Shown here piece after piece: positions 46,277-62,839 of a stretch of 64,000 bases of DNA. A program made the position numbers and the translations under genes. Source of the stretch: Paracoccus sp. (in: a-proteobacteria). GTDB taxonomy: Bacteria; Pseudomonadota; Alphaproteobacteria; Rhodobacterales; Rhodobacteraceae. Where the stretch lies: contig NZ_DATMFA010000022.1 of assembly GCF_035556475.1 (NCBI RefSeq), forward strand, positions 72 through 64,071, given 5' to 3'. Under the pieces are notes generated by a model. It did not search any database, had not been told where the DNA came from, and saw only the letters and a list, made by a program, of their open reading frames with translations. Position 1 is the stretch's first letter. Every line of letters begins with the position of its first letter.

Positions 46277-46285
46277 GGACATGAG

Positions 46286-47647
46286 ATGAGCCGCAAAATC
46301 GCCCTCGGGGCCTTTCTCCATCCCTCCGGCCATCATGTCGCCGCGTGGCGCCACCCCGCTGCGCGGGCCGATGCGGGGATCAATATCCGCAACTATATCC
46401 GGCTGGCGCAACTGGCCGAGGCGGCAAGCTTCGATCTGGTGTTCCTGGCCGACCAGATCGCGGTGCCGTCGTCCAATCTGGACTATGCCAGCCGCACAAC
46501 TCGCGCGACCTATTTCGAGCCGTTGACCTTGATTGCGGCCATCGCGGCGGCGACCCAGCGGATCGGGCTGGTCGCGACGGTCTCGACCAGCTTCAACAGC
46601 CCCTACAACATGGCGCGCTATATCGCGTCGATCGACCATATCTCGGGCGGACGGGCAGGGTGGAACCTTGTCACCTCCGGCTCGGAACTGGAGGGTGAGA
46701 ATTTCGGCCTCGGCGACGATTACCGCCTTCATGCCAATCGCTACCGGCAGGCGGCCGAGTTTGCCGAAGTGGTCCGTGGCCTCTGGGACAGTTTCGAGGC
46801 TGGCGCGGTGGCGGATGACCGCGCCGCCGGGCGCTATCTGGATGAGGGGCGCGTCCATGCCCTGCACCATCGGGGCGAGCATTTCCGGGTGAAAGGGCCA
46901 TTGTCGCAGCCCCGTTCTCCGCAGGGCCAGCCGGTGCTGGTGCAGGCCGGTTCCTCGCCCGCCGGGCGCGATCTGGCGGCGCGCTCGGCCGAGCTGGTCT
47001 TTACCGCGCAGCCCACACTGGCGCAGGCGCAGGAATTCTATGCCGACGTCAAGGCCCGCGCGGTGGCATTCGGCCGCGCGCCCGAGGACATCCTGATCCT
47101 GCCCGGCGTCTTTCCGGTCGTCGGCCGGTCCGATGACGAGGCGCAGGAGAAATTCGCCACGCTGCAAAACCTCATCACCCCCGAGGTTGGGCGCGAATAC
47201 CTGTCGCTGCATCTTGGCGGCATCGACCTCTCCGGCCATTCCGACGACGATCCGGTTCCCGAGGTCGAGGTGGGCGAGCGTGGCCATGTCTCGCGCCCGC
47301 TGTTGCTGCTGCAAAAGGCCCGCAGCCGGAACCTGACGATCCGCGACCTTTATCTGGAAATCGCCGGCGCGCGCGGCCATTGGCAGATCGTCGGCACGCC
47401 CGAAACCATTGCCGATGAGCTTGAGGCCTATTTCACCCAAGGTGGCGCGGACGGCTTCAACATCATGCCGCCCTCACCCACCGGGCTCGACGATTTCATT
47501 GAGCTGGTCCTGCCCGAATTGCGCCGGCGCGGGCTGATCCGCGACCAATACGACGCCCATACCCTGCGCGGCCATCTTGGGCTGAAGATCCCGGCCAACC
47601 GCTTTGCTGCCGCGACCGCCCGGCCGCGCGAACAGGCTTTGGCCTGA
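46286..47647 (+). CDS. NtaA/DmoA/DszA-family FMNH2-dependent monooxygenase (tandem paralog)
   Basis: GHHVAAWRHP, FDLVFLAD, EPLTLIAAI, PQGQPVLVQAGSS, ADGFNIMP. Confidence 0.9.
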   Translation: MSRKIALGAFLHPSGHHVAAWRHPAARADAGINIRNYIRLAQLAEAASFDLVFLADQIAVPSSNLDYASRTTRATYFEPLTLIAAIAAATQRIGLVATVSTSFNSPYNMARYIASIDHISGGRAGWNLVTSGSELEGENFGLGDDYRLHANRYRQAAEFAEVVRGLWDSFEAGAVADDRAAGRYLDEGRVHALHHRGEHFRVKGPLSQPRSPQGQPVLVQAGSSPAGRDLAARSAELVFTAQPTLAQAQEFYADVKARAVAFGRAPEDILILPGVFPVVGRSDDEAQEKFATLQNLITPEVGREYLSLHLGGIDLSGHSDDDPVPEVEVGERGHVSRPLLLLQKARSRNLTIRDLYLEIAGARGHWQIVGTPETIADELEAYFTQGGADGFNIMPPSPTGLDDFIELVLPELRRRGLIRDQYDAHTLRGHLGLKIPANRFAAATARPREQALA

Positions 47648-47671
47648 ACCTTTCAACGACATGAGCATCCT

Positions 47672-48937
47672 ATGGCACAGTTTATCGAAGCCCTTCCCGT
47701 CAGCGCCCGCTATGAGGCTTTTGCCGCGAAGGCCCGGCCCTTTCTGGAGCAGGTTCGCGCCGAGGCGGTCGATCGCGAGGCCAAGCACCGGCTGCTGCAT
47801 CAGGAAGTTGCCGAAGCGATCCGGCTGGGCCTGACCCGGCTTCGCCTGCCCGAGGCGCAAGGCGGGGCAGGTTTCGATCTGGTCGAATTCTTCGCCGCCG
47901 TCATCGAACTGGGCGCGGCTGACCCGAACCTTGCCAATGCGCTGCGTGCCAATGCCGGGATCCTCGAGGATGCGCTGGCGCGGCCCGGCCTTGCATGGAG
48001 CCAGTTGGTCGCGGCCGAGATCGCCTCGGGCAAGCTGGTCGGCAGCGGTGCGTCCGAAATCGGCGGCGCCACCAACCGCAGCTATGAGACGGTGCTGCGC
48101 CCGGATGGCGGCGACTATCGCCTCAGCGGGCGGAAGTTCTATACCACCGGTTCGCTCTATGGCGACTATCTCAACACCTATGCCCTGACGCCCGAAGGCG
48201 CGACGGTCACGCTGATCGTGCCGACCAAGGCCGATGGCGTGACGATCCTTGACGACTGGGATGGCTTTGGCCAGCAATTGACCGCCTCGGGCACCGCGTT
48301 GCTGGAGGATGTGGTGATCCGCCGCGAATGGGTGCGCCCGACTGCGGATCGCTTCCCCCATGCGCATGGTTTCTTCCAGCTTTACCACATCGCGACCATG
48401 GCCGGGATCGCGCGCACCATCGCAGAGGAGGCGACCGATCAGGTGATTGCGCGCAACCGCAGCTATCCCGGCCGCTCGAATGCCGAGCGCAGTGCGGACG
48501 ATCCCCAGATCCAGCAGGTGCTGGGGCGGCTGGCCTCGGTCGCCTATGTCACGCGGGCCGCGACGCTTCAGGCCGCGCGCGGGTTGCAGGACGTCCATGA
48601 CCGCGGCCGGGACGAGGTCGACGCGGAGCGGTTGAACGAACTCAGCGCCATCGCCGAGCTGCATGTCAGCCAGACGGTCACGATCGTGACCGATCTCGTG
48701 CTCGAGGCGGCGACGGTGCTGTTCGACACGCTGGGCGCCTCGGCTGCAAAACGCTCGCACGGGCTGGACCGGCATTGGCGCAATGCCCGCACGCTGGCCT
48801 CGCATAATCCGCGCATCTTCCACGACCGGCTGATCGGGCGCTTTGCCGCCACCGGGGCGATCCCGGATTCCTTCGGACTGCAGGCGCGTCCCATCGCCGG
48901 GCCGGTGCCCGGTCGCCCGCAACTCGTCACTGCATGA
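47672..48937 (+). CDS. DszC/SfnB-like flavin-dependent monooxygenase
   Basis: LSGRKFYTTGSLY, DDWDGFGQQLTASG, GLDRHWRNARTLASHNP. Confidence 0.83.
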   Translation: MAQFIEALPVSARYEAFAAKARPFLEQVRAEAVDREAKHRLLHQEVAEAIRLGLTRLRLPEAQGGAGFDLVEFFAAVIELGAADPNLANALRANAGILEDALARPGLAWSQLVAAEIASGKLVGSGASEIGGATNRSYETVLRPDGGDYRLSGRKFYTTGSLYGDYLNTYALTPEGATVTLIVPTKADGVTILDDWDGFGQQLTASGTALLEDVVIRREWVRPTADRFPHAHGFFQLYHIATMAGIARTIAEEATDQVIARNRSYPGRSNAERSADDPQIQQVLGRLASVAYVTRAATLQAARGLQDVHDRGRDEVDAERLNELSAIAELHVSQTVTIVTDLVLEAATVLFDTLGASAAKRSHGLDRHWRNARTLASHNPRIFHDRLIGRFAATGAIPDSFGLQARPIAGPVPGRPQLVTA

Positions 48938-48944
48938 GGCCGCG

Positions 48945-50123
48945 ATGACCCTGCAATATGCCCCAGAGGCCGCCCGGACGACCCATCTGCCCGGTCCGGC
49001 CGATTTTCCCGACAGTCCGCTGTCCCGCGCCTTGCGCCAACCGACGCTGCTGGGCCTGTTCCTGCCGATTCAGGCCGGAGGCTGGACGGATTCCACGCTG
49101 CCCCGCAGCACCGACTGGCGCTTTGACTATAACCGCGATCTGGTGCTGGAGGCCGAGCGGCAAGGCTTCGATCTGGTCTTTGCGCTCAGCCAGTGGTTGC
49201 CGAAGGGTGGCTATGGCGAGGTGCTGAACGGTCAGGCGCTGGACAGTTTCATCACCACGGCGGCACTGGCGGCGGTGACGCAGCGGATCATGCTGATTTC
49301 CACGATCCATGTCCTCTATGGTCCGTGGCACCCGCTGCATCTGGCGAAATTCGGGGCGACGCTGGACCATATCAGCCGCGGACGCTGGGGCATCAATGTC
49401 GTGACCGGCCACCGCGCCGTCGAGCATGAGATGTTCGGTTGGACGAGGATCGAGCATGACCGGCGCTATGAGCTGGCCGCCGATTTCCTCGATGCGGTCG
49501 GCCAGCTTTGGGCCGCGGATGAAAACTATTCCCATGTCGGCGAGCGCTGGCAGATGAAGGATGCCTTCGTCACGCCGAAGCCGAATTTCGGGCGCCCGAT
49601 TCTGGTCAATGCCACCGGATCCGATGCCGGGCTGGATCTGGCGGCGCGCTATTCGGACATCGTTTTCGTGACCTCACCGGGCGGAGCGGACATCGCCTCG
49701 GCGCTGGAGACCTTGCCGGACCACACGGCCAAGGCCAAGGCGCGCGCCCGCGCCCAGGGGCGCGAAATCCGCACGCTGCTGAACCCGCTGATCGTGGCCC
49801 GCGATACCGAGGCCGAGGCGCTTGCCTATGCCGATGGCATCGTCGCGCATCACGGCGGGCGCAAGCCGATGGGCGCTGGCCGCTTCGACAGCGATGCGCA
49901 GGCCTGGAAAGGGCATATGGCGAAGAACGACCCCTATGCGAAGGTTGGCGGCAATATCTACCTGATCGGAACGCCCGAGCAGATCGTCGAGAATCTGGTC
50001 AGGCTGAAGGCAGCGGGCGTCGATGGCTTCCAGCTGTCCTTCTATGACTTCGCGCCCGACCTCGCCTATTTCGGCGACCGGATCCTGCCGCTGATGAAAG
50101 AGGCCGGATTGCGGCATGGCTAG
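48945..50123 (+). CDS. SfnG/SsuD-like luciferase-class monooxygenase
   Basis: GGW...TDW.FDYN, GPWHPLHLAK..ATLDHIS.GRWG.NVVTG, GTPEQIV. Confidence 0.8.
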   Translation: MTLQYAPEAARTTHLPGPADFPDSPLSRALRQPTLLGLFLPIQAGGWTDSTLPRSTDWRFDYNRDLVLEAERQGFDLVFALSQWLPKGGYGEVLNGQALDSFITTAALAAVTQRIMLISTIHVLYGPWHPLHLAKFGATLDHISRGRWGINVVTGHRAVEHEMFGWTRIEHDRRYELAADFLDAVGQLWAADENYSHVGERWQMKDAFVTPKPNFGRPILVNATGSDAGLDLAARYSDIVFVTSPGGADIASALETLPDHTAKAKARARAQGREIRTLLNPLIVARDTEAEALAYADGIVAHHGGRKPMGAGRFDSDAQAWKGHMAKNDPYAKVGGNIYLIGTPEQIVENLVRLKAAGVDGFQLSFYDFAPDLAYFGDRILPLMKEAGLRHG

Positions 50124-50309: not shown

Positions 50310-51512
50310 ATGGGCGCGTTGGACGGCATTACGGTACTCAGCTTCAACCATTTTCTCTCAGGACCGGCCGCGGCGCAGTTCCTTGGCGACATCGGCGCGG
50401 ATGTCATCGCGGTCGAGCCGCTGGGAGGGGCGTTCCAGCGCAACTGGGCCGTCGGCAACCGTTTCGTGGATGAAACCAGCGTCAATCACATGACGACCGG
50501 GCGCAACAAGCGCTCGATCGCGGTGGACCTGAAGTCGCCCGACGGGCTTGCCGCCGTGCGCCGCCTGATCGCGCGCGCCGATGTGGTGATGGAAAATTTC
50601 CGCCCCGGCACTCTGGAGAGGCTGGGCCTGTCCGAGGCCGCGATGCGCGCGATCAACCCGCGTCTGATCTATGCGGCGACCACCGGTTACGGCGGCGACG
50701 GCCCCTATCGCGACCGGCCCGGTCAGGACGTGCTGCTGCAGGCGATGTCCGGCCTTGCGGCCCATACCGGTAGTATGGAAAGCGGCCCGGTCGCCATCGG
50801 AACGGTTCCGATCGACCACCATGCCGCCGCGCTGACCGTGGCGGGGATCCTGGCCGCGCTCTACGAGCGTGAGCGGACCGGCGAGGGCAAGCGCATCGAA
50901 GTCAACATGCTGCAGGCTGCGCTGGACCTGCAGGGGGAATCGATCACCGCATGGATGAATGGCGCGGATCGCAGCGGTCCGCGTGGTCAGGCCGGAATGG
51001 CCAACTGGTTCAGCCCCGCGCCCTACGGAATTTACGCGGTCGCGGACGGTCATCTGATGATCTCGATGTCGAAACCCGCCGATCTGGCCGAGGCGCTGAA
51101 CCTGCCAGAATTGGCGGGGTTCAGCGAAAAAGACGGCTTCGACAGGCGGGCCGAGATTTCCACGCTGGTCGCGGGCGGCATGGCCGTGCTGACTGCGGCA
51201 GAGGCGCAGGAGCGCCTGGCGCAGGCCGGCGTCTGGCACGAATTGGTGCGCGATTACGACAGCCTTCGCGGCAACCCGCAGATCGAGCATCTGGGCGCCT
51301 TCATCGACGCCCGGACGCAGGGCGGCTCGCCCATGACGCTGCTGTCGCATCCGATCCGCTATGACGGCGCGCTGCCGGAGGTGCGGCTGACGCCGCAACC
51401 GCTGGGCGGCCAGACTCGTGAGATCCTGGCTGAGGTCGGGCTGAGCCAGGACGAAATCGACGCGCTGATCACCAGCGGGGCTGTCGCACAAACCGAAAAG
51501 ATGCGGGGCTGA
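50310..51512 (+). CDS. CaiB/BaiF family III CoA transferase
   Basis: GADVIAVEP, RNKRSIAVDLKS, ADVVMENFRPG, RPGQDVLLQAMSG with the catalytic Asp. Confidence 0.9.
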   Translation: MGALDGITVLSFNHFLSGPAAAQFLGDIGADVIAVEPLGGAFQRNWAVGNRFVDETSVNHMTTGRNKRSIAVDLKSPDGLAAVRRLIARADVVMENFRPGTLERLGLSEAAMRAINPRLIYAATTGYGGDGPYRDRPGQDVLLQAMSGLAAHTGSMESGPVAIGTVPIDHHAAALTVAGILAALYERERTGEGKRIEVNMLQAALDLQGESITAWMNGADRSGPRGQAGMANWFSPAPYGIYAVADGHLMISMSKPADLAEALNLPELAGFSEKDGFDRRAEISTLVAGGMAVLTAAEAQERLAQAGVWHELVRDYDSLRGNPQIEHLGAFIDARTQGGSPMTLLSHPIRYDGALPEVRLTPQPLGGQTREILAEVGLSQDEIDALITSGAVAQTEKMRG

Positions 51513-51513
51513 G

Positions 51514-52674
51514 ATGGATTTCGCGATTTCCGATGAAATGAAGATGGTGACCGAGGCGATCGGTCGCTTCGTGCGCGAAAAGGTCCAGCCGCTCGAGCAG
51601 GAGACCGAGGAGAACGCCCGCATTCCTGCCGACAAGCTGGCTGCGGTCCGGGCCGAGGCGCAGTCCCTGGGCTTCTATGCGCTGAACATGTCCGAAGAGG
51701 TCGGCGGCGGCGGCCTTGGCGTGCTCGACATGTGCCTTGTCGAGGAGCAGCTGGGCCAGACGTCGGATGCGCTGATCCGGCGCATCTTCGGGCAGGTTTA
51801 TCCGATGCTGGAACGCTTCGAGGGGCCGCTGCGCGACAAATACCTGTATCCGACCGTCAAGGGCGACAAGATCTGCGCCATGGCGATCACCGAGCCGGGT
51901 GCGGGTTCGGACGCGGCCGCGATCAAGACCAATGCCTGTCTGGACGGCGGCAAATGGGTGCTGAATGGCACCAAGCATTTCATCTCGGACGGGGACATCG
52001 CTGATTACGTCATCGTCATGGCGGTAACGGATGCCGAAAAGCGGGCGCGCGGCGGCATCAGCCTGCTGATCGTCGACAAGGACACGCCCGGCTTCAAGGT
52101 CACGCGCAGCCAGCCGATGATGGGCCATCGCGGCTATGGCCATGCCGAGCTGACATTCGACGATGTCCGCATCCCGAGGGAAAACGTGCTTGGTCCAGTG
52201 GGCGAGGGCTTCAAGGTGATGATGGCCAATGTCGGGGGCATTCGCCTCGGCCATATCGGGGCGCGCGCCGTGGGCATGGCCAGCCGCGTGGTCGAGCTGA
52301 TGCGCCAGTACGCCGCGACACGCCAGCAGTTCGGCCAGCCCATTGGTGACTTCCAGATGATCCAGCAGATGATCGCCGACAGCGCGATGGAGATCTTCGC
52401 CACCCGCATGATGGTGCTGAACACCGCGTGGGAGCAGGACCGGGGCATGGACCCGCGCGACAAGGTCAGCATGGTCAAGGTGCAGGCGTCGGAGATGCTC
52501 GGCCGCGTGGCCGACCGGGGCATTCAGGTCTTTGGCGGCTACGGCTTCACCAAGGAACTGCCGCTGGAGCGGATCTATCGCGATGCCCGCGTCACGCGGA
52601 TCTATGACGGCACCTCCGAGGTGCATCGCATGCTGATCGCCCGCTCGGTCATCAAGCGCGGCCTTGCCCTGTGA
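51514..52674 (+). CDS. Acyl-CoA dehydrogenase
   Basis: AITEPGAGSD, NGTKHFIS, RQQFGQPI, QVFGGYG, RIYDGTSEV. Confidence 0.92.
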   Translation: MDFAISDEMKMVTEAIGRFVREKVQPLEQETEENARIPADKLAAVRAEAQSLGFYALNMSEEVGGGGLGVLDMCLVEEQLGQTSDALIRRIFGQVYPMLERFEGPLRDKYLYPTVKGDKICAMAITEPGAGSDAAAIKTNACLDGGKWVLNGTKHFISDGDIADYVIVMAVTDAEKRARGGISLLIVDKDTPGFKVTRSQPMMGHRGYGHAELTFDDVRIPRENVLGPVGEGFKVMMANVGGIRLGHIGARAVGMASRVVELMRQYAATRQQFGQPIGDFQMIQQMIADSAMEIFATRMMVLNTAWEQDRGMDPRDKVSMVKVQASEMLGRVADRGIQVFGGYGFTKELPLERIYRDARVTRIYDGTSEVHRMLIARSVIKRGLAL

Positions 52675-52685
52675 AGGATCGGAAC

Positions 52686-53090
52686 ATGAGCGAACTTCCC
52701 GCCGTGGGTCAGTCGATGACCTTCCGCAAGACGATGACCGTGGCCGAGCAGGGCTTTTTCACCGGCATCTCGGGTAATATGGGCCGCGCCCATGTGGACC
52801 GCGCATTCGCGCGCAGTCAGGGCCAGCCCGACATGCTGGTCTTTGAACTTGCGGCAGCCGGCCTTTTCTCCACCGCTTTCAGCCGTCTCGCTGGTCCGGG
52901 CTTCCGCCTTGGCGGGATCGAGCTGCGCTTTGCCCGCGCCTTTCCCGTCGGCAGTTCGCTCGAGGCGACGGCGACGGTCGCCGAAAGCGCGGCGGATGGC
53001 GTCCGCTTCGACCTTTCCGCGACGCTCGACGGGATCGAGGTGATCACGGGCAAGGCGCGCCTCGTGCCGCTGGACGCATCCGATGTATGA
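52686..53090 (+). CDS. MaoC-like hot-dog protein with a degenerate hydratase motif
   Basis: SGNMGRAHVD in place of TGDxxPxH; LRFARAFPVG strand; possible GTG start at 52671. Confidence 0.65.
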   Translation: MSELPAVGQSMTFRKTMTVAEQGFFTGISGNMGRAHVDRAFARSQGQPDMLVFELAAAGLFSTAFSRLAGPGFRLGGIELRFARAFPVGSSLEATATVAESAADGVRFDLSATLDGIEVITGKARLVPLDASDV

Positions 53091-53517
53091 CATCCGCAAC
53101 ATCGACGAGTTTTCAGTCGGCGACCGGGTCAGCGTCGCCAAGACCGTGACCGAGGCCGATGGTGCGATGTATATCGCCGCGACCGGCGATTTCGGGCCGG
53201 TCCATGTGGATGAGGGCTATGCCTCGACCACGCGCTTTGGCGAGCGGCTGGCCCCCGGCATCCTTGTCGCGGGGATCTGCACCTCGGTCCTGACGGCTGA
53301 ACTGGTGGGCACGGTCGGCGTCTCGATCCGCGACTGTTTCTGGTTCACCGGCGCGGTCCGCTATGGCGACACGCTGACATTCGAGATCTGGATCTCGGCC
53401 ATCGACCCCGAGAACCGGACCGTCGACTGGCAGGCGAGTGCCCGGAACGAAGAGGGCGTCGAGGTGCTGAAGGCCGATGCCACACTCAAATTTCCAAGAA
53501 AGAAGGTCATCGCATGA
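53083..53517 (+). CDS. MaoC family (R)-specific enoyl-CoA hydratase
   Basis: ATGDFGPVHVD...TRFGERLAPG...FTGAVRYGDTL. Confidence 0.85.
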   Translation: MYDIRNIDEFSVGDRVSVAKTVTEADGAMYIAATGDFGPVHVDEGYASTTRFGERLAPGILVAGICTSVLTAELVGTVGVSIRDCFWFTGAVRYGDTLTFEIWISAIDPENRTVDWQASARNEEGVEVLKADATLKFPRKKVIA

Positions 53518-54443
53518 TTTCCGGCAAGGATCTTGGCGGCATTACCGTCGCAACCGTGCTTCCCTTTCATGAGGACGGCGCCGTCGACTGGGCGGGGTAC
53601 GAGGGCGTGCTGGCCCATTGCGCGCGCCCGGAGACGACGGATTGCGTCTTCGTGAACGGCCATGCCGGCGAGGCAACGGCGCTGACCGCTGAGGAACGCG
53701 CCGAGGTCATCCGCCGCACCCGCGACCATATCGGCAAGGATCGCGTCCTGCTGGCCGGGGTGGTCCCGACCGGCTACCCCGAGGCGATTGCGCAGGCCGA
53801 GGCCGCGCGGGAGGCCGGCGCCGATGTCGCGGTGATCTTCCCGGCCGAAGCGCTTGGCGGCGGCAACGCGAATACGGCCGCAGGCGTAAAGTTTATCGAG
53901 AAGCTGGGTGCGGAGCTGCAAATGCCTCTCTCGATCTTTCAGTTTCCGATCGCTTCGGGCTTTGGCTTCTCGACACCGGTTCTCGCCGAGATGGCCCGGA
54001 TCCCGGAGGTCGTCGCCATCAAGGAAGGCTCGGCCACGCTTCTCGCCTATGACGAGAACCGGCGCGCGGTGAAGGCGGCGGCACCCGATGTTGCCATTCT
54101 GCCCTCGAATTTCCACTGGTTCTTTGCGCAGGTGGCGCTTGGCGGCGATGGCATCCTGTCGGGGCTGGCAAGTCTTGTGCCGGACTTGCTGTCGGATCTT
54201 TGGAAAGCCTCGCAGGACATGGACCTTGGCCGGATGCGCGCGGCGAATGAGCGGCTCTATCCGGTGGTGCGTGCGGTCTACGGTCCTGCGCCCGTGGTCG
54301 ACATGCATACGCGGATGAAGGACGGGTTGCGCCTGATGGGCGTGATCAGGAATTCTGCCCCGCGTCTGCCCTTGCTCAAGCAATCCGATGATGTCGTCGA
54401 GGGCGTCCGCAAGGCGCTGGTCTCGGCAGGTGTGCTGCAATGA
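53514..54443 (+). CDS. DapA/NAL-superfamily class I aldolase, non-canonical (NGHAGE)
   Basis: VLPFHEDG.VD, NGHAGE, IFQF at the Tyr position, AIKEGS Schiff-base Lys. Confidence 0.8.
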   Translation: MISGKDLGGITVATVLPFHEDGAVDWAGYEGVLAHCARPETTDCVFVNGHAGEATALTAEERAEVIRRTRDHIGKDRVLLAGVVPTGYPEAIAQAEAAREAGADVAVIFPAEALGGGNANTAAGVKFIEKLGAELQMPLSIFQFPIASGFGFSTPVLAEMARIPEVVAIKEGSATLLAYDENRRAVKAAAPDVAILPSNFHWFFAQVALGGDGILSGLASLVPDLLSDLWKASQDMDLGRMRAANERLYPVVRAVYGPAPVVDMHTRMKDGLRLMGVIRNSAPRLPLLKQSDDVVEGVRKALVSAGVLQ

Positions 54444-55351
54444 ACGGCGGGCTTTACGCCGCCACGATCTGCACGATGACGTCCGACGGCCAGATCGACG
54501 CGGCGGCGCAGGAGAGGCATTTCGCCGCCGTGATGGCGACGCCGGGTCTGGACGGGCTGCTTCTGAACGGCCATGCGGGTGAGGGCGTTTTCACCTCGCG
54601 CGAGGAACAGGCGCAAATCGTGCGGATCGCGCGTGAGGTTTCGCCGAAGGCGCGCATCCTTGCCGCGGTCAGTTCGGAATCGACCATGCAGGCAGGCAAG
54701 GATGCCGAGGCCGCGCTGCATGCCGGTGCCGATGCGATCATGGTCTTTGCGCCCTTTTCATGGACGCTCGGGGCCGACCCGCGCGCGATCATCGCTCATC
54801 ATCGCGGCATCGCCGAGGTGGCGGGCGCGCCGATCTATCTGTTCCAGGGTTCGGTCGGTTCGGGAAAGCTGGCCTATACCCCTGACGTGCTGCGCGCGCT
54901 TCTCGACATCGAAGCCGTGGCTGGCATCAAGGAAGGCAGTTGGGAAACCCGTGCCTATGAGGTGACGCGTCGGATCACCCGCGCCGCGCGGCCTGATGTC
55001 GCGGTCATGGCTTCGGGGGACGAGCACCTTTATACCTGCTACGTGATCGGCAGCGATGGCAGCGCGGTCAGCCTTGCCGCCGTGGTTCCCGAGCTGATCG
55101 TGGCCCTTGATCGCCATGTCCGCGAAGGCCGCCACGCGCAGGCGCTGGCGATCCATGAGGCACTGTTCGACTTCGCGCGCCTCGTCTATGCCGCCCCCGG
55201 TCACATGGCCGCCGCGCGTCTGAAGGCCTGCCTGGTCGAGCTGGGCCGCATCCCCGACGATGCCTGCCGCGCACCGACCCCGCCGGTGCTGCCCGAAGAA
55301 CGCGCGGCGTTGATGGCCGCCCTGCGTCCCTGTCTGGAGCTTTCGCCGTGA
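54440..55351 (+). CDS. Second DapA/NAL-superfamily protein (NGHAGE)
   Basis: NGHAGE, LFQG, GIKEGS; ATGA-coupled to its paralog. Confidence 0.8.
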   Translation: MNGGLYAATICTMTSDGQIDAAAQERHFAAVMATPGLDGLLLNGHAGEGVFTSREEQAQIVRIAREVSPKARILAAVSSESTMQAGKDAEAALHAGADAIMVFAPFSWTLGADPRAIIAHHRGIAEVAGAPIYLFQGSVGSGKLAYTPDVLRALLDIEAVAGIKEGSWETRAYEVTRRITRAARPDVAVMASGDEHLYTCYVIGSDGSAVSLAAVVPELIVALDRHVREGRHAQALAIHEALFDFARLVYAAPGHMAAARLKACLVELGRIPDDACRAPTPPVLPEERAALMAALRPCLELSP

Positions 55352-55635: not shown

Positions 55636-55666
55636 GGGGATGCACGCAAGGGAACGCGCGCGGGAC

Positions 55667-56584
55667 ATGCTGAACCTCAGGCAGCTCGAAATTCTGCGCG
55701 CGGTCGTCCAGTACCGCACCACCGTGGGCGCGGCCGAGCAGCTGGGGATGTCCCAGCCCTCGATTTCGAACACCATCCGACATGTCGAGACCTTGCTCGG
55801 GTTTCCGCTGTTCGAGCGGCAGTCGAACCGGCTGATCCCGACCGAGGAGACGATGATCCTCCTCGAGGAATCCGAGCCCCTCTTCCTGCTGCGCGACGCG
55901 GTCAATCAGCGCGCCGCCGACCTGCGCGCGGGACGGATCGGGCGGGTCCGCATCGCCTCGACCGCCGAGATCAGCGAGGCGGTGCTGCCCCGCGCCATCG
56001 CCGACTATGCGCGCCAATATCCCCAGATCCAGATTTCGCTTGAGACCCGACCGCTCGACAGCGTGCTTCAGGTCGTCGAGAACGGCCTGGCGGACGTGGC
56101 CTTCGTCATCTCGGCCTATGACCGGCAGGCGCTTGACTTCGAACTGATCGCGGAACTGCGCGCGGTCTGCATCTGCCCCGAGGGTCATCCTCTGGCGGCG
56201 CTGGCGCAGGTCACGCCGCGCGATCTGGAGGGCCATCCGCTGGTCGGGCCCCGCACTGCGAACCGGGTCGGTATGATGATCGCGGATTGTTTCCACGAAT
56301 GCGGGATGGAATACCGCCCTTCGATCGAAACCCGCTTCATGAACGCGGCCTCGCGCATCGTTGGCGAGGGCTGGGGCGTTGCTGTCGTGGACGAGCTTTC
56401 GGCCCATGTTGCGCTGCGCCCCGGGCTGACAGTTCGTCCCTTCCAGTCGCGGCTGCGCTTCAATCTGGTGGCCGCAACGCTGCGGACCAAGACCCTTTCG
56501 CGCCAGACCCGACGCTTCATGAAAGCTGTATCGGACCGGGTGAAGATGCAACTGGCAGAAATGCACGCTGCCTCGACCCCCTAG
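55667..56584 (+). CDS. LysR family regulator
   Basis: LRQLEILRAV...AAEQLGMSQPSIS...LFERQSNRLIPT; alternative start 55640. Confidence 0.92.
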   Translation: MLNLRQLEILRAVVQYRTTVGAAEQLGMSQPSISNTIRHVETLLGFPLFERQSNRLIPTEETMILLEESEPLFLLRDAVNQRAADLRAGRIGRVRIASTAEISEAVLPRAIADYARQYPQIQISLETRPLDSVLQVVENGLADVAFVISAYDRQALDFELIAELRAVCICPEGHPLAALAQVTPRDLEGHPLVGPRTANRVGMMIADCFHECGMEYRPSIETRFMNAASRIVGEGWGVAVVDELSAHVALRPGLTVRPFQSRLRFNLVAATLRTKTLSRQTRRFMKAVSDRVKMQLAEMHAASTP

Positions 56585-57348
56585 TTGCGCAGGCTGGCGA
56601 CCGCCTGGGCGCCCCCTGCGACCAGCAGGTTCGTGTCATTCGTCGCGACGATCAGCGAGGCGCCGGGTGCATGGCTTGCGACCAGATGCGCCGGCAAGCC
56701 CATGACCCCGAATGCCTTGGCGTGGCGCGCGGCGGCACCGGCGATCCGCCCAAAGGCAGCCAGCACCGCCGGGTGTTCGACCTGTCCTCTCAGCCCCAGA
56801 CCGTCGGCAAGGTCGTTCGTTCCGATGACGAGCATGTCGATCCCGTCGACGGCGGCGATTTCGTCGACCGCCCCCAACCCCGCCGCGCTTTCGATCATTG
56901 CCGCGATGCTGACCTCGCGCCCTGCCTGAACGCAAAAGTCCAGGGCAGGCAGCAGCGCATAGTCGAGTGCCGGCACCGGTCCGGGAATGCTGCGCCCGCC
57001 AAGGGGCGCAAAGCGGCAGGCGCGTACGATCTCGCGCGCTTGGGCCACGCTGTCCACATGCGGCACGATGAGCCCGGTTGCTCCGCAATCGAAGACGCGC
57101 GCGAGGTCGCCCGACCTTGGCCCGCCGACCCGGGCCCACACCGGAAAGCCTGCGGCGATCCCCGCCGCCGCCACCTGCCCGAGTGCATCCATGCCCAGCG
57201 GACCATGTTCCATGTCCACGACGGCAAAGTCGAATCCGGCACCACGCGCCAGCAGAACGGCCTCGGGCCGGCCCAGAATGCAAAAGGCGATGCCAATGCG
57301 CGGCGTATCGGGATTCTGTTTTTGCTCAGCATTTAGGCTGTTGGCCAT
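56581..57348 (-). CDS. HpcH/HpaI-family class II aldolase
   Basis: FDFAVVDMEHGP, GLIVPHV, FAPLGGRS, MIES, IGTNDL. Confidence 0.8.
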   Translation of the reverse strand: MANSLNAEQKQNPDTPRIGIAFCILGRPEAVLLARGAGFDFAVVDMEHGPLGMDALGQVAAAGIAAGFPVWARVGGPRSGDLARVFDCGATGLIVPHVDSVAQAREIVRACRFAPLGGRSIPGPVPALDYALLPALDFCVQAGREVSIAAMIESAAGLGAVDEIAAVDGIDMLVIGTNDLADGLGLRGQVEHPAVLAAFGRIAGAAARHAKAFGVMGLPAHLVASHAPGASLIVATNDTNLLVAGGAQAVASLRN

Positions 57349-57608
57349 TGCGTGTCCAAACCTCGGATTGGGGAACCCAAGGCTAACCCGATTGTCCGGG
57401 GATTATTCGCTGAAAGCGCGCGTTAAATACTTTGTATCAGGATATTTATAGTTGCGTGACTTCTTGAAGCCCTTTTTCCCGATAACCTATGAGCCATGGC
57501 AAAGAGCGCGCAAGCGCCGCAACCCGCCGACAGGTCGAAGGGGAATCAAGGATGGTCCATCCGTCAATTGCAGATACCTGCGTATCAGAAACTGCGCGCA
57601 ATCCATTG

Positions 57609-58106
57609 ATGCGCGTTGCCAATCGGGGACTCTGGATGCTGCGGCGCCTCGTCGACGGCGTCCTTCTGGCGCTGCTTGGCTATATGGCTCTGGCAATCCT
57701 CGCGCAGGTGGTAGGACGTTATTTTTTCAACTATTCGATCGCCTGGAGCGAGGAGACGGCGACCTTCGCACAGGTCTGGCTGACCCTCCTCGGGGCGGGT
57801 GTCGCGATGCGCTATAATCAACATGTCGGCGTGGATTTCCTGATCCTGAAGGCGCCGGTCGGGGTCCAGCGTATCGTCAACGGCGTGGCCTTCCTGCTGG
57901 GGATATGGTTTCTCGGCGTGGTGGTGGTCGGCTCGCTTTCGATGTTGTCGATCGGGCTGATGGTGAAATCGCCCGCATTGCGCCTGCCGATGGCGATTCC
58001 CTATTCGGCCCTGCCGGCGGGATTTGCCTATTTCCTGATCGAATTCGCGATCACTACCCTGCCGCGCGTCCTGCGCCCGGGTGCAACCACAAGCCAGGGG
58101 GACTGA
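57609..58106 (+). CDS. dctQ: TRAP transporter small permease
   Basis: QVVGRY, WSEE, HVGVD, SPAL..PM...Y; start uncertain (57609 or 57552). Confidence 0.85.
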   Translation: MRVANRGLWMLRRLVDGVLLALLGYMALAILAQVVGRYFFNYSIAWSEETATFAQVWLTLLGAGVAMRYNQHVGVDFLILKAPVGVQRIVNGVAFLLGIWFLGVVVVGSLSMLSIGLMVKSPALRLPMAIPYSALPAGFAYFLIEFAITTLPRVLRPGATTSQGD

Positions 58107-58108
58107 TC

Positions 58109-59389
58109 ATGGGCGTCGCACTGTCCGGCTTTCTCGTCCTTCTGGTTTCGGGAATGCCCATTGTCCTCGCGCTCGGCATCGCGGGGTTGATCGCGATCGA
58201 GCTGACCACCGGCGCACCGATTTCGATCGTCGCGCAGCGCATCTATGGCGGGATCAGTTCCTTCACGCTGATGGCGATCCCTTTCTTCGTCGCCTCGGGC
58301 CTGCTGATGGAGGCGGGTGGCATCGCGCGGCGCTTCGTCGCGCTGGCCGAGGCGCTGGTCGGCTGGATCACCGGCAGCCTCTATATGGTCGCGATCGTGA
58401 CCGGGACCGGGCTTGCCGCGATCTCGGGCTCAGGCTCGGCGGATACCGCAGCGATCAGCGCGGTCATGGTCCCCGAAATGAAAAAGCGGCGCTATAATAT
58501 TGATCTTGCCGCCTCGGTCATCGCGGCATCGGGCGCGCTGGCCTCGATCATTCCGCCCTCGATCGTGATGATCGTGATCGCGATCACGTCGAACCAGTCG
58601 ATCGGCGCAATGTTCCTTGGCGGCGTGGTGCCGGGCATGATGGTCATGATCTTCCTGATGGTCGGCTGCTGGCTTTACAGCCGCCGCCAGGGCGAGGTCT
58701 ATCGCGACGCCCGGGCCTTCACGCTGTCCCGGCTGTGGCGCGGCTTCGTCGATGCGGGACCGGGGCTGATGATCCCACTGATCGTGGTCGGCGGCATCGT
58801 CGGCGGCGTCTTCACCGCGACCGAGGCCGCCTGCGTCGCGCTGTTCGCCACGCTGATCATCACCATGCTGATCTATCGCGAGATCAGGCCTTCGGACCTG
58901 CCGCGTATTATGCTGAAGGCGATCAGCCTGTCGGCGACGGTGCTGATCATTGTCGCGACCGCCAGCGTATTTACCTGGGTCATCGCGACGGCCGGCCTGC
59001 CTGCCATGCTGAAAAACTGGCTGACCGGGATCACGCAAAGTCCCTGGGTATTCCTGCTGATCGTCAACCTGCTGCTGCTGGTCGTGGGCATGTTCATGGA
59101 AAGCATCTCGGCCGTGCTGATCCTGCTGCCGATCCTGTCGCCGATTGCGCAAAGCTTCGGAATCGACCCGGTGCATTTCGGGATCATCATATCGCTGAAC
59201 CTGTCGATCGGCCTGATCACGCCCCCCTATGGCATCTGCCTTTACGTCGCAGCCAGCGTTGCCGGCCGGCGGATCGAACAGGTCTCGCGCCAGATCTGGC
59301 TGCCGCTGGGGGCGATGCTGATCGTGCTGGGCCTCGTCACGTATGTGCCGGCGATCTCGCTCTGGTTGCCCGACGCCTTCATTCGCTAG
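58109..59389 (+). CDS. dctM: TRAP transporter large permease
   Basis: LMAIPFF, AISGSGSADTAA, IIPPSIVM, FTATEAA, DPVHFG, ITPPYG. Confidence 0.93.
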   Translation: MGVALSGFLVLLVSGMPIVLALGIAGLIAIELTTGAPISIVAQRIYGGISSFTLMAIPFFVASGLLMEAGGIARRFVALAEALVGWITGSLYMVAIVTGTGLAAISGSGSADTAAISAVMVPEMKKRRYNIDLAASVIAASGALASIIPPSIVMIVIAITSNQSIGAMFLGGVVPGMMVMIFLMVGCWLYSRRQGEVYRDARAFTLSRLWRGFVDAGPGLMIPLIVVGGIVGGVFTATEAACVALFATLIITMLIYREIRPSDLPRIMLKAISLSATVLIIVATASVFTWVIATAGLPAMLKNWLTGITQSPWVFLLIVNLLLLVVGMFMESISAVLILLPILSPIAQSFGIDPVHFGIIISLNLSIGLITPPYGICLYVAASVAGRRIEQVSRQIWLPLGAMLIVLGLVTYVPAISLWLPDAFIR

Positions 59390-59412
59390 CCATAACCAAC
59401 AGGGAACAAGAC

Positions 59413-60372
59413 ATGCTGAATCGACTGTTTGCCTCTGCCGTCCTTCTCGCCATCGTTGCGGGTCCGCTTGCGGCGCAGGAATACAAATTCAAGATCGGCC
59501 ATACCAATGCGTCCGACGAGGTGCAGGACAAAGGCCTGCAGAAGATGCGCGAGCTGCTTGAGGCCAAGACCAACGGCGCGGCGACGCTGGAGATCTTTCC
59601 GGGCGGCCAGCTTGGCGACGAATCCCAGTTGATCGAGGGGGTGATGCTTGGCAGCATCGACATGTCGATGACCTCGAACGCGCTGCTGTCGAACTATGTC
59701 GAGGATTACAAGGTCTTCGACATGCCCTTCCTGTTTCCCAGCATTGGCGAGTTGGGCGGCAAGATCGACGCGAACTGGGATCTGATGGAGGCATCTGCCA
59801 ACAATTCCGGTTTCCAGCTTCTGGGCGTCCATTCCTCGGGGCTGCGCCACCTGATGACCAAAAAGCCGGTCGAGGGCATCGGCGACCTGGCCGGGCTGAA
59901 GATCCGCACCATGCAGAACCCGGTTCATGTCGAGGCCTGGCGCGCCTATGGCGCGAACCCGACGCCGATGTCCTACAACGAGCTTTACGGCGCATTGCAA
60001 TCGGGCGTCGTGGATGGGGCAGAGGCCGCCTCGACCGGCTATGACGGGATGAAGTTCTATGAGGTCGCGCCTGATTTCGCGCAGGTCGGCTGGCTCAACA
60101 TGACCGCGCCGGTGGTGATGCAAAAGGGCGCATTCGACGCGCTGCCCGAAAACATCCAGGCCGCGCTGATGGAGGCAGGCCGGGAAGCCGCGGCATGGGA
60201 GCGCGGCTATGTCGAAGAGCAGGAGCAGCCGCTGATCGACAAGTTCAAGGCCGCCGGTGCGAATGTCACCCAGCCCGACCCAGCCCCGTTCCGCGAGGCG
60301 TCGAAGCCACTTTATGCAAGTCAACTCAGCACGCCCGGCCAGCAGGCGCTGCTGAAGGCCATGACCGAATAA
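59413..60372 (+). CDS. dctP: TRAP substrate-binding protein
   Basis: Signal peptide, IFPGGQLG, DMPFLF, GLKIRTM (carboxylate-binding Arg), ANPTPMSYNELYGALQSGVVDGAE. Confidence 0.92.
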   Translation: MLNRLFASAVLLAIVAGPLAAQEYKFKIGHTNASDEVQDKGLQKMRELLEAKTNGAATLEIFPGGQLGDESQLIEGVMLGSIDMSMTSNALLSNYVEDYKVFDMPFLFPSIGELGGKIDANWDLMEASANNSGFQLLGVHSSGLRHLMTKKPVEGIGDLAGLKIRTMQNPVHVEAWRAYGANPTPMSYNELYGALQSGVVDGAEAASTGYDGMKFYEVAPDFAQVGWLNMTAPVVMQKGAFDALPENIQAALMEAGREAAAWERGYVEEQEQPLIDKFKAAGANVTQPDPAPFREASKPLYASQLSTPGQQALLKAMTE

Positions 60373-60375
60373 GTC

Positions 60376-60407
60376 CGATGCGGCGTCCCGTCAGGGGCGC
60401 CGCATCG
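60376..60407. terminator. Hairpin after dctP
   Basis: CGATGCGGCGTCCC-gtca-GGGGCGCCGCATCG. Confidence 0.65.
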
Positions 60408-60429
60408 CGATGGCCAGGGGGCAGGCATT

Positions 60430-60530
60430 TTTGACACAGCCATCCGCAACGAGACCCTCATCATCGCCTGCGACCGCCACCGCGCCCAGTTCGTCGCGCT
60501 GTCGGCGATATGATTGACATCGGTGCCGAT
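60430..60530 (+). pseudogene. Possible N-terminal remnant of a dihydropyrimidinase/allantoinase-type amidohydrolase
   Basis: FDTAIRNETLIIACDRHRAQ resembles FDTVIRNGT.VTASD..RAD; followed by a stop/frameshift and a MIDIG-like segment. Confidence 0.4.
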
Positions 60531-60588
60531 GCCGATCCGACACTCCCGGATCCGGCGCGACGGCGAAGTTTGCTGCGGAAGTGCGGGC

Positions 60589-61257
60589 CTAGGCGTCAGG
60601 GGCGATCCGCGAGACGAGGTCTTCCATCATCGCCGCGTTCTGCATGCGCAGGATCGCCTCTGCCGCCACGTTGTCATGGCGGCGAAGGGCGTCGATCAGC
60701 AATTGCATCTCCTCGGCCATGACTCGCCTGCGGCCGGTGCCATAGCCATAGCCGCGGCGGAAGGCGAAGATGATGTCCCAGCCGCGCAGAAAGACGCGCA
60801 GCGCCTCGCGGTTGCCGCCGAACTCGACCAGCTTGGCGTTGAAGTCGCGGTTGACGCGGATCGCCTCCAGATCCTCGCCATGGTCCAGATGGTCGCGATA
60901 TTCCTGCGCCAACGCCTCAAGCGCGCGAATACGCTCCAGCGTCAACGTGGCCATGCCGCGCCTGACCGCGCAGATGCGCAGGTCGGTGTTCAGCTCGAAC
61001 AGGTCGGTGATATAGGCGCGGTCCAGCTTGCGGACCGTCGCGCCCCGGTTAGGCTCGATCTGGACCAGCCCTTCACCTTCAAGCTTCCGCAGCGCCTCGC
61101 GCAGGGGCATAGTGGACAGGCCAAGCCGCTGGGCCAGTTCTGCCGTCTTCAGCCGCTCGCCCGGCGCCATCTGCCCCGAAAGGATCGCCTCGCGGATCAG
61201 ACGGGTCGCCTGATCAGCCGAGTTCAGCGCGCTATCGAGCGGCTCGTTCATGATCAC
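60589..61257 (-). CDS. GntR family (FCD) regulator
   Basis: IREAILSG.MAPGERLK...LGLSTMPLREALRKLEGEGLV...PNRGA.V; GTGA-coupled to maoC. Confidence 0.9.
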   Translation of the reverse strand: MIMNEPLDSALNSADQATRLIREAILSGQMAPGERLKTAELAQRLGLSTMPLREALRKLEGEGLVQIEPNRGATVRKLDRAYITDLFELNTDLRICAVRRGMATLTLERIRALEALAQEYRDHLDHGEDLEAIRVNRDFNAKLVEFGGNREALRVFLRGWDIIFAFRRGYGYGTGRRRVMAEEMQLLIDALRRHDNVAAEAILRMQNAAMMEDLVSRIAPDA

Positions 61258-61688
61258 CCCCGCTTCCGAATCAGCGAGACATGCTCGGCGTCGATCACAG
61301 CCTCCTCGCCACGCAGAAGGCGCACGGCCTCGGTGACGACACCGCGCCCCTTGCTTTCGCGCTTGGCGGTGAAATCCATCTTGACATGGATCACGTCACC
61401 CGCAGCCAGCGGCTTCAGGAAGCGGACCTTGTCCCAGCCGAGCGAGGCGATCGAGCTTTCGTCGTAAAGATGTAGTTCGGTCTTCAGCCCCTCCATCAGC
61501 GCCAGACCGTATAGCCCATGAGCGATGATGCCGGGAAACCCGGCATCGCGCGCATAGTCGGCATCGGTGTGGAGGGGATGATGATCCCGCGTCAGACGGC
61601 AGAAGTCGGCGATGTCGGCCTCGGTGATGCGATGGGCGGGCGTGGTGTAGCTGCTCCCGATGTCGACATCCTCATAGAACAGGCTCAT
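61254..61688 (-). CDS. MaoC family dehydratase
   Basis: FYED..IG, ITEADIADF..LTRDHHPLHTD, IIAHG, VRFLKPL..GD.I. Confidence 0.87.
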   Translation of the reverse strand: MSLFYEDVDIGSSYTTPAHRITEADIADFCRLTRDHHPLHTDADYARDAGFPGIIAHGLYGLALMEGLKTELHLYDESSIASLGWDKVRFLKPLAAGDVIHVKMDFTAKRESKGRGVVTEAVRLLRGEEAVIDAEHVSLIRKRG

Positions 61689-62839
61689 GCGTATTGCTTT
61701 CCGACTTGTCGCGCGATGATCATGCGCTGGATCTGGTTTGTGCCTTCATAGATCTGGCTCAGCCGCACGTCACGGAAAAGCCGCTCGACGCGGAACTCGC
61801 GCGAATAGCCATTGCCGCCATGGATCTGCAGCGCGTTGGAAATATGGACCTGCGCCATGTCGGTGGTGAAAAGCTTGGCCTGCGCCGCCTCAAGCGCGAT
61901 GGGCTGACCGGCGTCGTAAAGCCGCGCGGCATGATGGATCAGCAGGCGGGCGGCGGCGATGTCCTTGGCCATGTCGGCGATCATGAACTGGATTGCCTGA
62001 AACTCGAAGATCGGCTTGCCGAACTGTCTGCGCTCATGCGCATAGGCGATCGCGTCCTCCATCGCCGCCTGCGCCATGCCAAGCGCCATCGACGACATCA
62101 TCAGGCGCGAGAAATTGAAGTTCTCCATCGCCATCTTGAAGGCGCCGTTCTCGGGCCCGATCCGGTTCGCGATCGGCACGCGAACCTGGTCGAGGGCGAT
62201 CATGCATTCGGCAAGGCCGTGCATTCCCAACAGTTCCTCGGACTTGCCGCGATGGACGCCGGGGCGGTCGGTCTCGACCAGAATGCAGGAAATCCCCCTG
62301 TGGCCCGCCGCGGGATCAGTCTTGGCAAAGACCATGATCACATCCGCGACCTGCCCGAACGTGACCCATGCCTTCGAGCCCGTGATCACATACTCATCCC
62401 CCTCGCGACGGGCGACGGTATTCATGCTGGCGACGTCCGAGCCATTGTCGGGCTCGGTCACCGCGGTCGCGGGAATCACACTGCCGTCAAGGATGCCGGG
62501 GATCAGGGCCTTGTGCTGGGCGTCGCCGTGATGGTTCAGGAATAGCGCCGCTTCGACCGGGATCGCGAAGGCATTGCCGACCGCGCCCGAGCCGCGCGCG
62601 ATCTCCTCCATCGCGATGCAGGCGGTCAGCGCGTCCATGCCGGCACCGCCGGCCTCCTCGGGCAGCGCCACGCCGAAAAGGCCAAGTTCGGCCAGTGCGA
62701 GATAGGCATCGCGGGGGAAGGCGTTCTCACGGTCGATCCGGGCGGCGATGGGCGCGACGACCTCATCCGAGAGCTTGCGCGCAGTGTCGCGCACCATGCG
62801 CTGCTCGTCACTCAAGAAGTGATCCAAAATAATCTCCAT
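61685..62839 (-). CDS. Acyl-CoA dehydrogenase
   Basis: AVTEPDNGSD, ITGSKAWVT, RRQFGKPI, QIHGGNGYS, IYEGTNQIQ. Confidence 0.92.
   Translation of the reverse strand: MEIILDHFLSDEQRMVRDTARKLSDEVVAPIAARIDRENAFPRDAYLALAELGLFGVALPEEAGGAGMDALTACIAMEEIARGSGAVGNAFAIPVEAALFLNHHGDAQHKALIPGILDGSVIPATAVTEPDNGSDVASMNTVARREGDEYVITGSKAWVTFGQVADVIMVFAKTDPAAGHRGISCILVETDRPGVHRGKSEELLGMHGLAECMIALDQVRVPIANRIGPENGAFKMAMENFNFSRLMMSSMALGMAQAAMEDAIAYAHERRQFGKPIFEFQAIQFMIADMAKDIAAARLLIHHAARLYDAGQPIALEAAQAKLFTTDMAQVHISNALQIHGGNGYSREFRVERLFRDVRLSQIYEGTNQIQRMIIARQVGKQYA

Follow-up and report, generated by a model that had tools for sequence, protein, structure and literature searches.

Two DHDPS-fold proteins with a replaced catalytic triad in a conserved CoA-enzyme gene cluster of Paracoccus

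What does a DHDPS-type fold do once the residues taken to define its catalysis have been exchanged? The question is raised by two adjacent genes, here called DH1 and DH2, in a 64,000-nucleotide stretch of a Paracoccus sp. genome (contig NZ_DATMFA010000022.1, positions 72 to 64,071; the whole stretch is hereafter "the window"). The DHDPS/NAL superfamily ranks with the best-studied class I aldolases, and its Thr/Tyr/Tyr relay is treated as a hallmark; the classical relay is Thr44/Tyr107/Tyr133 in E. coli DHDPS, where Tyr133 corresponds to Y137 in NAL and Arg138 binds aspartate semialdehyde. By their sequences, DH1 and DH2 belong to a large uncharacterised DHDPS/NAL clade with a replaced triad, which exchanged the relay for an invariant His, kept the Lys, and bears only generic or wrong names in database records. 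It is an altered-site variant inside a known superfamily, found within a well-conserved pathway that is not described in the literature searched.

Active sites and family placement

The DHDPS-family genes of the window are as follows.

53514-54443, + strand: DH1, 309 aa, DHDPS/NAL fold, with His50, Phe142-Gln143 and Lys170
54440-55351, + strand: DH2, 303 aa, DHDPS/NAL fold, with His45, Phe135-Gln136 and Lys164
63360-64000, + strand: third DHDPS-family gene, with canonical GSTGE, YNNP and IKDTS; it runs past the window end, to G000:C22:64288

The initial annotation of this DNA reported that DH1 and DH2 both carry GHAGE, have F-Q in place of the catalytic Tyr and keep the Lys of IKEGS, and that a canonical GSTGE/YNNP version stands at 63360; the translations bear out both statements. 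DH1 has NGHAGE at residues 48-53 (His50), IFQFP at 141-145 (Phe142-Gln143) and IKEGS at 169-173 (Lys170), and DH2 has NGHAGE at 43-48 (His45), LFQGS at 134-138 (Phe135-Gln136) and IKEGS at 163-167 (Lys164); the gene at 63360 has the canonical site, with GSTGE, PPYY, LYNNP and IKDTS. The observation was correct and slightly understated, since the interface Tyr is lost too: the third triad residue (the second Tyr, in the 'PYY' loop) has given way to FPAEA in DH1 and FAPFSW in DH2. All three relay residues are replaced in both proteins, with the Schiff-base Lys retained. Reading along the DapA triad and the Arg138 site, we find His50, FPAEA, Phe142 and FPIASG in DH1, and His45, FAPFSW, Phe135 and GSVGSG in DH2. 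In E. coli DHDPS numbering we take these changes to be Thr44 to His, Thr45 to Ala and Tyr133 to Phe, with Tyr107 and Arg138 absent.

The two proteins are 32% identical to each other. NGHAGE occurs in 117 of 120 DH1 homologues (down to 54% identity), nearly all of which also have F-Q-[FY]-P and [IV]KEGS, and the DH2 family conserves NGHAGE, LFQG and GIKEGSWE at ≥95%. Because the motifs are kept across the homologues of both proteins, the altered site is not a matter of chance. Each of the two families has further invariant residues specific to it.

Placement in the superfamily is secure. PF00701 covers the full length of each protein (92 bits for DH1, 111 bits for DH2). The AlphaFold model of DH1 (pLDDT 96.2) is a TIM barrel that Foldseek matches to DHDPS, NAL and YagE at TM 0.85-0.93, the DHDPS structures being at most 26% identical, in keeping with the superfamily's (beta/alpha)8 barrel and C-terminal helical domain. 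Lys170 of DH1 and Lys164 of DH2 align with the catalytic Lys of canonical proteins, where imine formation is predicted, and the conserved catalytic Tyr position holds Phe142 in DH1 and Phe135 in DH2, Phe being common there in the clade.

Some JGI and UniRef records name such proteins DapA, and a DapA isozyme is what a superficial search would suggest: TIGR00674 (dapA) is the top-scoring NCBIfam model for both proteins, and canonical DHDPS chains are the best PDB sequence matches of DH1 and stand just behind YagE for DH2. The fold (TM about 0.9 to PDB 3cpr, 3qze and 1dhp), the position of the Schiff-base Lys and the G-x-x-G-E loop are indeed those of DapA. However, the TIGR00674 scores (104.1 bits for DH1, 87.9 bits for DH2) are at most about half of the curated 206.15-bit cut-off, the proteins are only 21-26% identical to DapA, the triad and the aspartate-semialdehyde-binding Arg are gone, the genes belong to a catabolic operon, and a genuine dapA (316.9 bits on TIGR00674) lies on another contig, G000:C7. 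From these scores and residues we judge that DH1 and DH2 are not DapA, and we give the isozyme reading almost no credence. Other curated models do no better: nanA, KdgD, archaeal KDG aldolase and HpaI-not-DapA score 35-77 bits against cut-offs of 278-397, and ESM Atlas matches are to generic DHDPS-family clusters only. The genome holds ten DHDPS-family paralogues in total. The gene at 63360 scores 206.2 bits on TIGR00674, barely at the cut-off, and pipelines may label it DapA; its context is catabolic, and it is divergent from a tautomerase-ACAD-MaoC-GntR module described below.

To place the two proteins we searched 1.84 billion representatives exhaustively with HMMER, obtaining 52 matches at E <= 1e-30 and 798 at E <= 1e-10; residues were tallied and a tree built on the full-length members of the best 150, an alignment of 129 rows that includes three DapA outgroup sequences, so that the nearest relatives counted are 126 representatives at 50% identity. 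At the positions of Thr44/Tyr133/Asn134/Lys161 the commonest combination is His/Phe/Gln/Lys (54 of 129 rows). Other rows show variants such as Asp/Asn/Val-Phe-Gln-Lys or His-Tyr/His-Gln-Lys, and the canonical Thr-Tyr-Asn-Lys appears only in the three outgroup sequences. His50 and Lys170 never vary in a narrower alignment of 51 clade members (A1), whose identity to DH1 is 25-52%. DH1 forms its own clade in the tree with support of 100*; the DH2 family has 99* and lies within a 100* group that also holds DH2-like proteins retaining the Tyr. The clade spans dozens of 50%-identity clusters from Alpha-, Beta- and Gammaproteobacteria and Bacillota.

Neither a sequence search nor an A1 profile search of the PDB found a solved structure of a clade member. 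The profile hit only canonical DHDPS and YagE chains, the best at 209 bits, and this best match aligns its GTTGE and YN to GHAGE and FQ. A 2026 survey of the superfamily lists the subfamilies DHDPS, NAL, KdgA, CHBPH, KdgD and KdaD, among which the His/Phe-Gln clade does not figure (PMC13398020). Nothing relevant turned up in the literature searched under the motif, the gene combination, or dihydropyrimidinase combined with the CoA enzymes, and no assay of a clade member was found. As far as sequence can carry it, then, the initial proposal of a distinct reaction subtype is supported: the clade is large and separate, its triad is replaced, both proteins score below all curated NCBIfam cut-offs, and no structure has been solved within it.

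A precedent for a changed triad residue accompanying a changed reaction in the superfamily is KdaD, L-2-keto-3-deoxyarabinonate dehydratase, which alone in the superfamily had been found to lack the conserved Tyr (PMC13398020). KdaD and KdgD likewise are superfamily members that do not catalyse aldol reactions. They differ from DH1 and DH2 in detail: KdaD has N-F in the loop and Gln144/Glu as catalytic residues where DH1 and DH2 have H-A and F-Q, KdgD retains the Tyr and its models match DH1 and DH2 far below their cut-offs, and the contexts of both are sugar-acid pathways rather than CoA modules. A DHDPS paralogue elsewhere in this genome (L072, G000:C12:3924-4745), with LANFSE and IQDAP, fits the KdaD N52/F53/Q144 signature (PMC13398020).

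The absence of the canonical triad from both proteins could also mean that one or both are catalytically dead scaffolds or regulators. We regard this as very improbable, given that the Lys and the His are invariant, that many pocket residues are at least 95% conserved within each family, and that both genes are intact and syntenic across orders.

The CoA module and the surrounding cluster

DH1 and DH2 are the fifth and sixth genes of an eight-gene operon (CoAT, ACAD, MaoA, MaoB, DH1, DH2, a 95-aa protein, LysR) whose neighbouring genes all either overlap or lie no more than 4 nt apart. The operon's other genes are the following.

50310-51512, + strand: family III CoA-transferase (CoAT), the first gene (PF02515, 314 bits)
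51514-52674, + strand: acyl-CoA dehydrogenase (ACAD), with all three ACAD Pfam domains
52671-53090, + strand: MaoC-like subunit A (MaoA), weak PF01575 match; GTGA overlap with the ACAD gene
53083-53517, + strand: MaoC-like subunit B (MaoB), PF01575, 62 bits
55348-55635, + strand: 95-aa ABM/EthD-like dimeric alpha+beta-barrel protein, weak DUF4286 and EthD matches
55640-56584, + strand: LysR-family regulator, the last gene (PF00126, PF03466), syntenic

CoAT keeps its synteny at every DH1 locus; its top NCBIfam matches, none of which reaches its cut-off, are to dicarboxylate transferases (succinate-glutarate, formyl/oxalate, mesaconate). ACAD, 82-96% identical among related loci, is nearest to the curated models for acryloyl-CoA reductase and non-decarboxylating glutaryl-CoA dehydrogenase, again below both cut-offs. 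In MaoA the hydratase-2 motif reads GNMGRAH, with the catalytic Asp changed to Asn, and this subunit is probably non-catalytic; MaoB (80-98% identity across loci) has GDFGPVH, Asp and His both intact, which marks it as the predicted catalytic (R)-hydratase subunit of the pair. The 95-aa protein is modelled by AlphaFold at pLDDT 92, and Foldseek matches it to ABM/EthD-type proteins. It is 74-95% identical across loci with 37 invariant columns, and is a core partner of the CoA module.

The operon lies in a cluster of about 20 genes. The remaining features within the window, up to the third DHDPS-family gene, are these.

56581-57348, - strand: HpcH/HpaI-type class II pyruvate aldolase, convergent on the operon (PF03328)
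57489-58106, + strand: TRAP transporter DctQ (PF04290)
ending at 59389, + strand: TRAP transporter DctM (PF06808)
59392-60372, + strand: TRAP transporter DctP (PF03480)
60373-60588, no strand: site of the lost dihydropyrimidinase gene, between DctP and GntR
60589-61257, - strand: GntR/FCD regulator of the second module (Pfam)
61254-61688, - strand: MaoC of the second module (Pfam)
61685-62839, - strand: ACAD of the second module (Pfam)
62870-63235, - strand: tautomerase-like protein of the second module (Pfam)

About 30 alphaproteobacterial genomes, spanning Rhodobacterales and Roseibium, share the whole arrangement. They include 29 loci (Paracoccus, Haematobacter, Rhodovulum, Salipiger, Donghicola, Roseibium and others), and part of the cluster is found on one betaproteobacterial (Comamonadaceae) plasmid. 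The second module is syntenic with the first in most loci, and in G346, an 8-Mb genome from another family, the two are fused. Beyond the third DHDPS-family gene, relatives have a second TRAP system, DUF3830, an acyl-CoA synthetase and, in two cases, a nucleoside hydrolase. The HpcH gene is present in 26 of the 29 loci, and in one of the other three the contig stops before its place. Its protein finds HpaI and GarL aldolases as best PDB matches (about 1e-26) and matches the RipC CoA-ester lyase model weakly (20.6 bits, E 2.5e-4).

One gene common in the relatives is missing here. A 469-aa dihydropyrimidinase (TIGR02033, 527 bits against a cut-off of 393) follows DctP in 25 of the 29 related loci. 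The closest relative retains a 50-aa remnant (L001:16007-16156) and the window a 20-aa trace at 60513-60572 (E = 0.05), from which we judge that the gene has been lost from both. Another place in this genome holds a copy that is 66% identical. We also note a second DHDPS-amidohydrolase pairing within the genome (L066, G000:C73:3050-5298), in which a Tyr-less DHDPS paralogue with LGMMGE and LQDFP adjoins an amidohydrolase 30% identical to dihydropyrimidinase.

How tightly is DH1 bound to the CoA enzymes? The order CoAT-ACAD-MaoA-MaoB stands directly upstream of DH1 in the window, in L001-L029, in L060 and in L076, and CoA genes are present at every DH1 orthologue locus examined. In a phylum-wide sample, by contrast, CoA-transferase or ACAD genes were found within 8 kb at none of 13 other clade members and none of 15 canonical controls, by a tblastn neighbour screen that is insensitive for MaoC; none of our conclusions draws on the unpublished genome G603. 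We accordingly reject the CoA link as a whole-clade trait. Four clade members sampled separately did have CoA-type neighbours. The initial annotation suggested a CoA-linked substrate for the pair; for DH1 alone the strict synteny with CoA-transferase, ACAD and MaoC genes supports this. The DH1 substrate may be either the thioester itself or a free acid released from it.

Among these four is a translationally coupled MaoC-DHDPS pair, in which a MaoC-family gene overlaps a clade member by 4 nt on plasmid 2 of Variovorax sp. SRS16 (L062:7477-8906; NGHASE, IFQYA, IKDYC), where the pair adjoins chlorocatechol-pathway genes with IS1071 and IS1600 just upstream; matches to this MaoC-DHDPS pair occur on Delftia and Achromobacter plasmids too.

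The gene set invites comparison with the itaconate cluster (Ict, Ich, Ccl) and with the methylsuccinyl-/mesaconyl-CoA steps of the ethylmalonyl-CoA pathway. Those systems too join a family III CoA-transferase (with ACAD) to a MaoC hydratase and then a lyase and use neither dehydrogenase nor thiolase, and MaoB weakly matches RipB/Ich just as HpcH weakly matches RipC/Ccl. The differences are that the itaconate lyase is an HpcH/CitE-type CoA-ester lyase whereas the HpcH protein here is of the pyruvate-aldolase type, that the conserved partner here is a DHDPS-fold protein, and that the hydratase of this cluster is a two-subunit one.

One enzyme or two

The initial annotation proposed that DH1 and DH2 perhaps form a heterotetramer, which we take here as an obligate hetero-oligomer (a dimer of heterodimers) acting as one enzyme. 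There is something to commend this. An ATGA overlap joins the DH1 stop to the DH2 start, 28 of 29 close loci have the genes side by side, and in Aquamicrobium, Mesorhizobium, Chelativorans and Acuticoccus assemblies the contigs carrying the two families are listed with equal lengths and are probably one and the same. DHDPS enzymes form tight dimers in which each subunit gives a residue to its partner's active site, and the loop at this inter-subunit site is strongly conserved here and differs between DH1 and DH2.

The phylogeny and the distribution of the genes point the other way. First, DH1 and DH2 fall in different, non-sister subclades, so they are old paralogues and not a tandem duplicate. 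Second, each is found in modules that lack the other but are alike in all else. In Falsigemmobacter (L028) and on Thioclava plasmid p3 (L060) the operon contains DH1 but no DH2, and Thioclava p2 (L059) has a DH1-like gene beside the second CoA module. Conversely, the Comamonadaceae plasmid (L064) has a DH2-type gene and no DH1, together with a CoAT-ACAD-MaoA-MaoB-small-protein module 46-70% identical to that of the window, a LysR gene and an HpcH gene; the DH2-type gene is followed there by dihydropyrimidinase. Third, in G346 transporter genes stand between DH1 and DH2.

Fourth, the preferred neighbours of the two differ. In three further genomes DH2-type genes lack a CoA module altogether and stand behind a dehydrogenase gene pair, HcnB-like (Pyr_redox_2 + 2Fe-2S) and DAO-type, with an amino-acid ABC transporter and a GntR regulator alongside. 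Dihydropyrimidinase is adjacent in two of the four DH2-type loci independent of DH1 (L051, L064) and lies about 6-7 kb off in the other two (L063, L079). DH1 thus goes with the CoA module and DH2 with the hydantoinase-type gene, a pattern that suits two enzymes for two steps better than two subunits.

We consider the hetero-oligomer unlikely on this evidence, and the heterotetramer proposal was not upheld. That DH1 and DH2 are instead two different enzymes, each with its own step in a single uncharacterised catabolic pathway, is a reading to which we give about an even chance. Two facts weigh against it: the genes are adjacent and translationally coupled in nearly all close loci, just as those of a heteromer would look, and DH2 is intact although the window lacks dihydropyrimidinase, so that the link is not obligatory here, despite the copy elsewhere in the genome.

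The genes around DH2-type proteins recall hydroxyproline catabolism, in which Delta1-pyrroline-4-hydroxy-2-carboxylate (Pyr4H2C) deaminase, a DHDPS-superfamily enzyme, follows a flavin-dependent D-imino-acid dehydrogenase (PMC4113996, PMC5144071). The stand-alone DH2-type genes similarly follow an HcnB-like and DAO-type dehydrogenase pair, but have dihydropyrimidinase rather than an epimerase and an aldehyde dehydrogenase. Pfam scans of the window cluster found no epimerase, no D-Hyp dehydrogenase and no KGSA dehydrogenase. The probable Pyr4H2C deaminase of this genome, next to Pro-racemase, AcnX and GntR genes, has GSMGD, IYNSP and FKEFG, keeping the Tyr and falling outside the clade. We therefore think it unlikely that the clade is Pyr4H2C deaminase, in a comparison made with this hydroxyproline-cluster paralogue.

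Possible reactions and substrates

What, then, might the two proteins do? Reading the cluster in order, a carboxylate would be imported by the TRAP transporters, and a cyclic amide or ureide would be opened by dihydropyrimidinase in most genomes (the gene being deleted here). The acid would then be activated as a CoA thioester by the CoA-transferase, desaturated by ACAD, and hydrated by the MaoC pair, with its one catalytic subunit, to carry a beta-hydroxyl. DH1 would most probably catalyse a lyase step, retro-aldol cleavage or elimination, on this beta-hydroxylated product or on a carbonyl compound derived from it, because neither a 3-hydroxyacyl-CoA dehydrogenase nor a thiolase was found among the cluster genes scanned and because DH1 always accompanies the CoA enzymes. 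DH2 descends from a lineage found in company with dihydropyrimidinase and amino-acid dehydrogenase genes; its substrate is probably a 2-oxo or 2-imino acid intermediate, on which it would act as a dehydratase or deaminase does.

In chemical terms, we infer that the Lys of each protein would still react with a carbonyl substrate to give an imine, while the invariant His would be the general acid/base, the usual role of Tyr133. An imine-forming lyase of this kind is suggested because the Lys is on the expected strand, the barrel is intact and the His is invariant in the loop. The substrate class may be a ureide or a pyrimidine-derived acid, a lead rather than a finding, suggested because dihydropyrimidinase, nucleoside hydrolase and, at one locus, a ureidoglycolate-lyase homologue recur.

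That homologue deserves mention in its own right. On the Comamonadaceae plasmid, L064:3610-4113 is a ureidoglycolate-lyase family gene (231 bits, above the subfamily cut-off) that ends the CoAT-ACAD-MaoA-MaoB-small-protein operon, a hint that a carbinol-ureide intermediate may give off urea. Transferring a substrate from the TRAP binding protein was rejected, its best liganded relatives (about 1e-43) being too distant.

Taken in full, the proposal is that DH1 is a Schiff-base lyase working directly with the CoA module on a hydroxyacyl-CoA-derived intermediate, with His in place of the Tyr relay, and that together with DH2 and dihydropyrimidinase it would form an undescribed route by which many marine and soil Alphaproteobacteria break down a ureide- or pyrimidine-derived carboxylate. 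We advance it tentatively and consider it rather unlikely.

Several considerations count against the two-enzyme reading and the functions assigned under it. The substrate and the type of reaction are read from gene context. The HpcH aldolase of the cluster could do the C-C cleavage alone, leaving DH1 without its proposed role. Moreover, the carbonyl of a thioester cannot be turned into an imine by a lysine, so that the link of DH1 to the CoA module would require a second carbonyl in the substrate, the formation of an aldehyde, or prior removal of CoA. Each has a conceivable form: the substrate might have another carbonyl, as would a 2-oxo-dicarboxylate activated at its distal carboxylate; hydration of a 3-substituted acryloyl-CoA might expel a leaving group and leave an aldehyde; or CoA might be transferred back before DH1 acts.

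A possible objection is that nothing new is needed, both proteins being ordinary pyruvate-dependent class I aldolases that act on 4-hydroxy-2-oxo acids, such as a 4-hydroxy-2-oxoadipate-type product of the CoA module, with His simply replacing Tyr. Both proteins conserve the fold, the Lys and the carboxylate-binding loop backbone. CoA-transferase, ACAD and hydratase could put a 4-hydroxyl on a C6 2-oxo-dicarboxylate, CoAT resembles dicarboxylate enzymes, and the cluster has, for acids of this sort, an HpaI/GarL-type aldolase besides a tautomerase-like gene. Yet all three triad residues are replaced, and in E. coli DHDPS the Y133F, T44V and Y107F variants each abolish most activity. Three aldolases for one cleavage would be redundant, and DH2-type proteins occur in amino-acid-type contexts without a CoA module. 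We find the objection improbable for these reasons.

Solving the reaction would give the superfamily a further reaction type or, failing that, a new catalytic solution, and would put right thousands of 'dihydrodipicolinate synthase' annotations. A new degradation route for a cyclic-amide or ureide-type metabolite would probably come to light as well; in the literature searched we found no description of the cluster's substrate.

Two open reading frames of the window were rejected as conserved genes. Those at 59386-60324 (- strand) and 60514-61467 (+ strand) have no Pfam match and are antisense shadows of DctP and of the GntR/FCD gene, the opposite strands matching Pfam at 2e-70 and 6e-18, respectively. 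Just upstream of the operon, positions 44918-50123 encode three luciferase-like monooxygenases and an SfnB/DszC-like ACAD-fold protein. This sulfur-scavenging island is not syntenic with the operon in related loci, so that a sulfur-specific reading of the operon was set aside, and it appears to be a separate unit.

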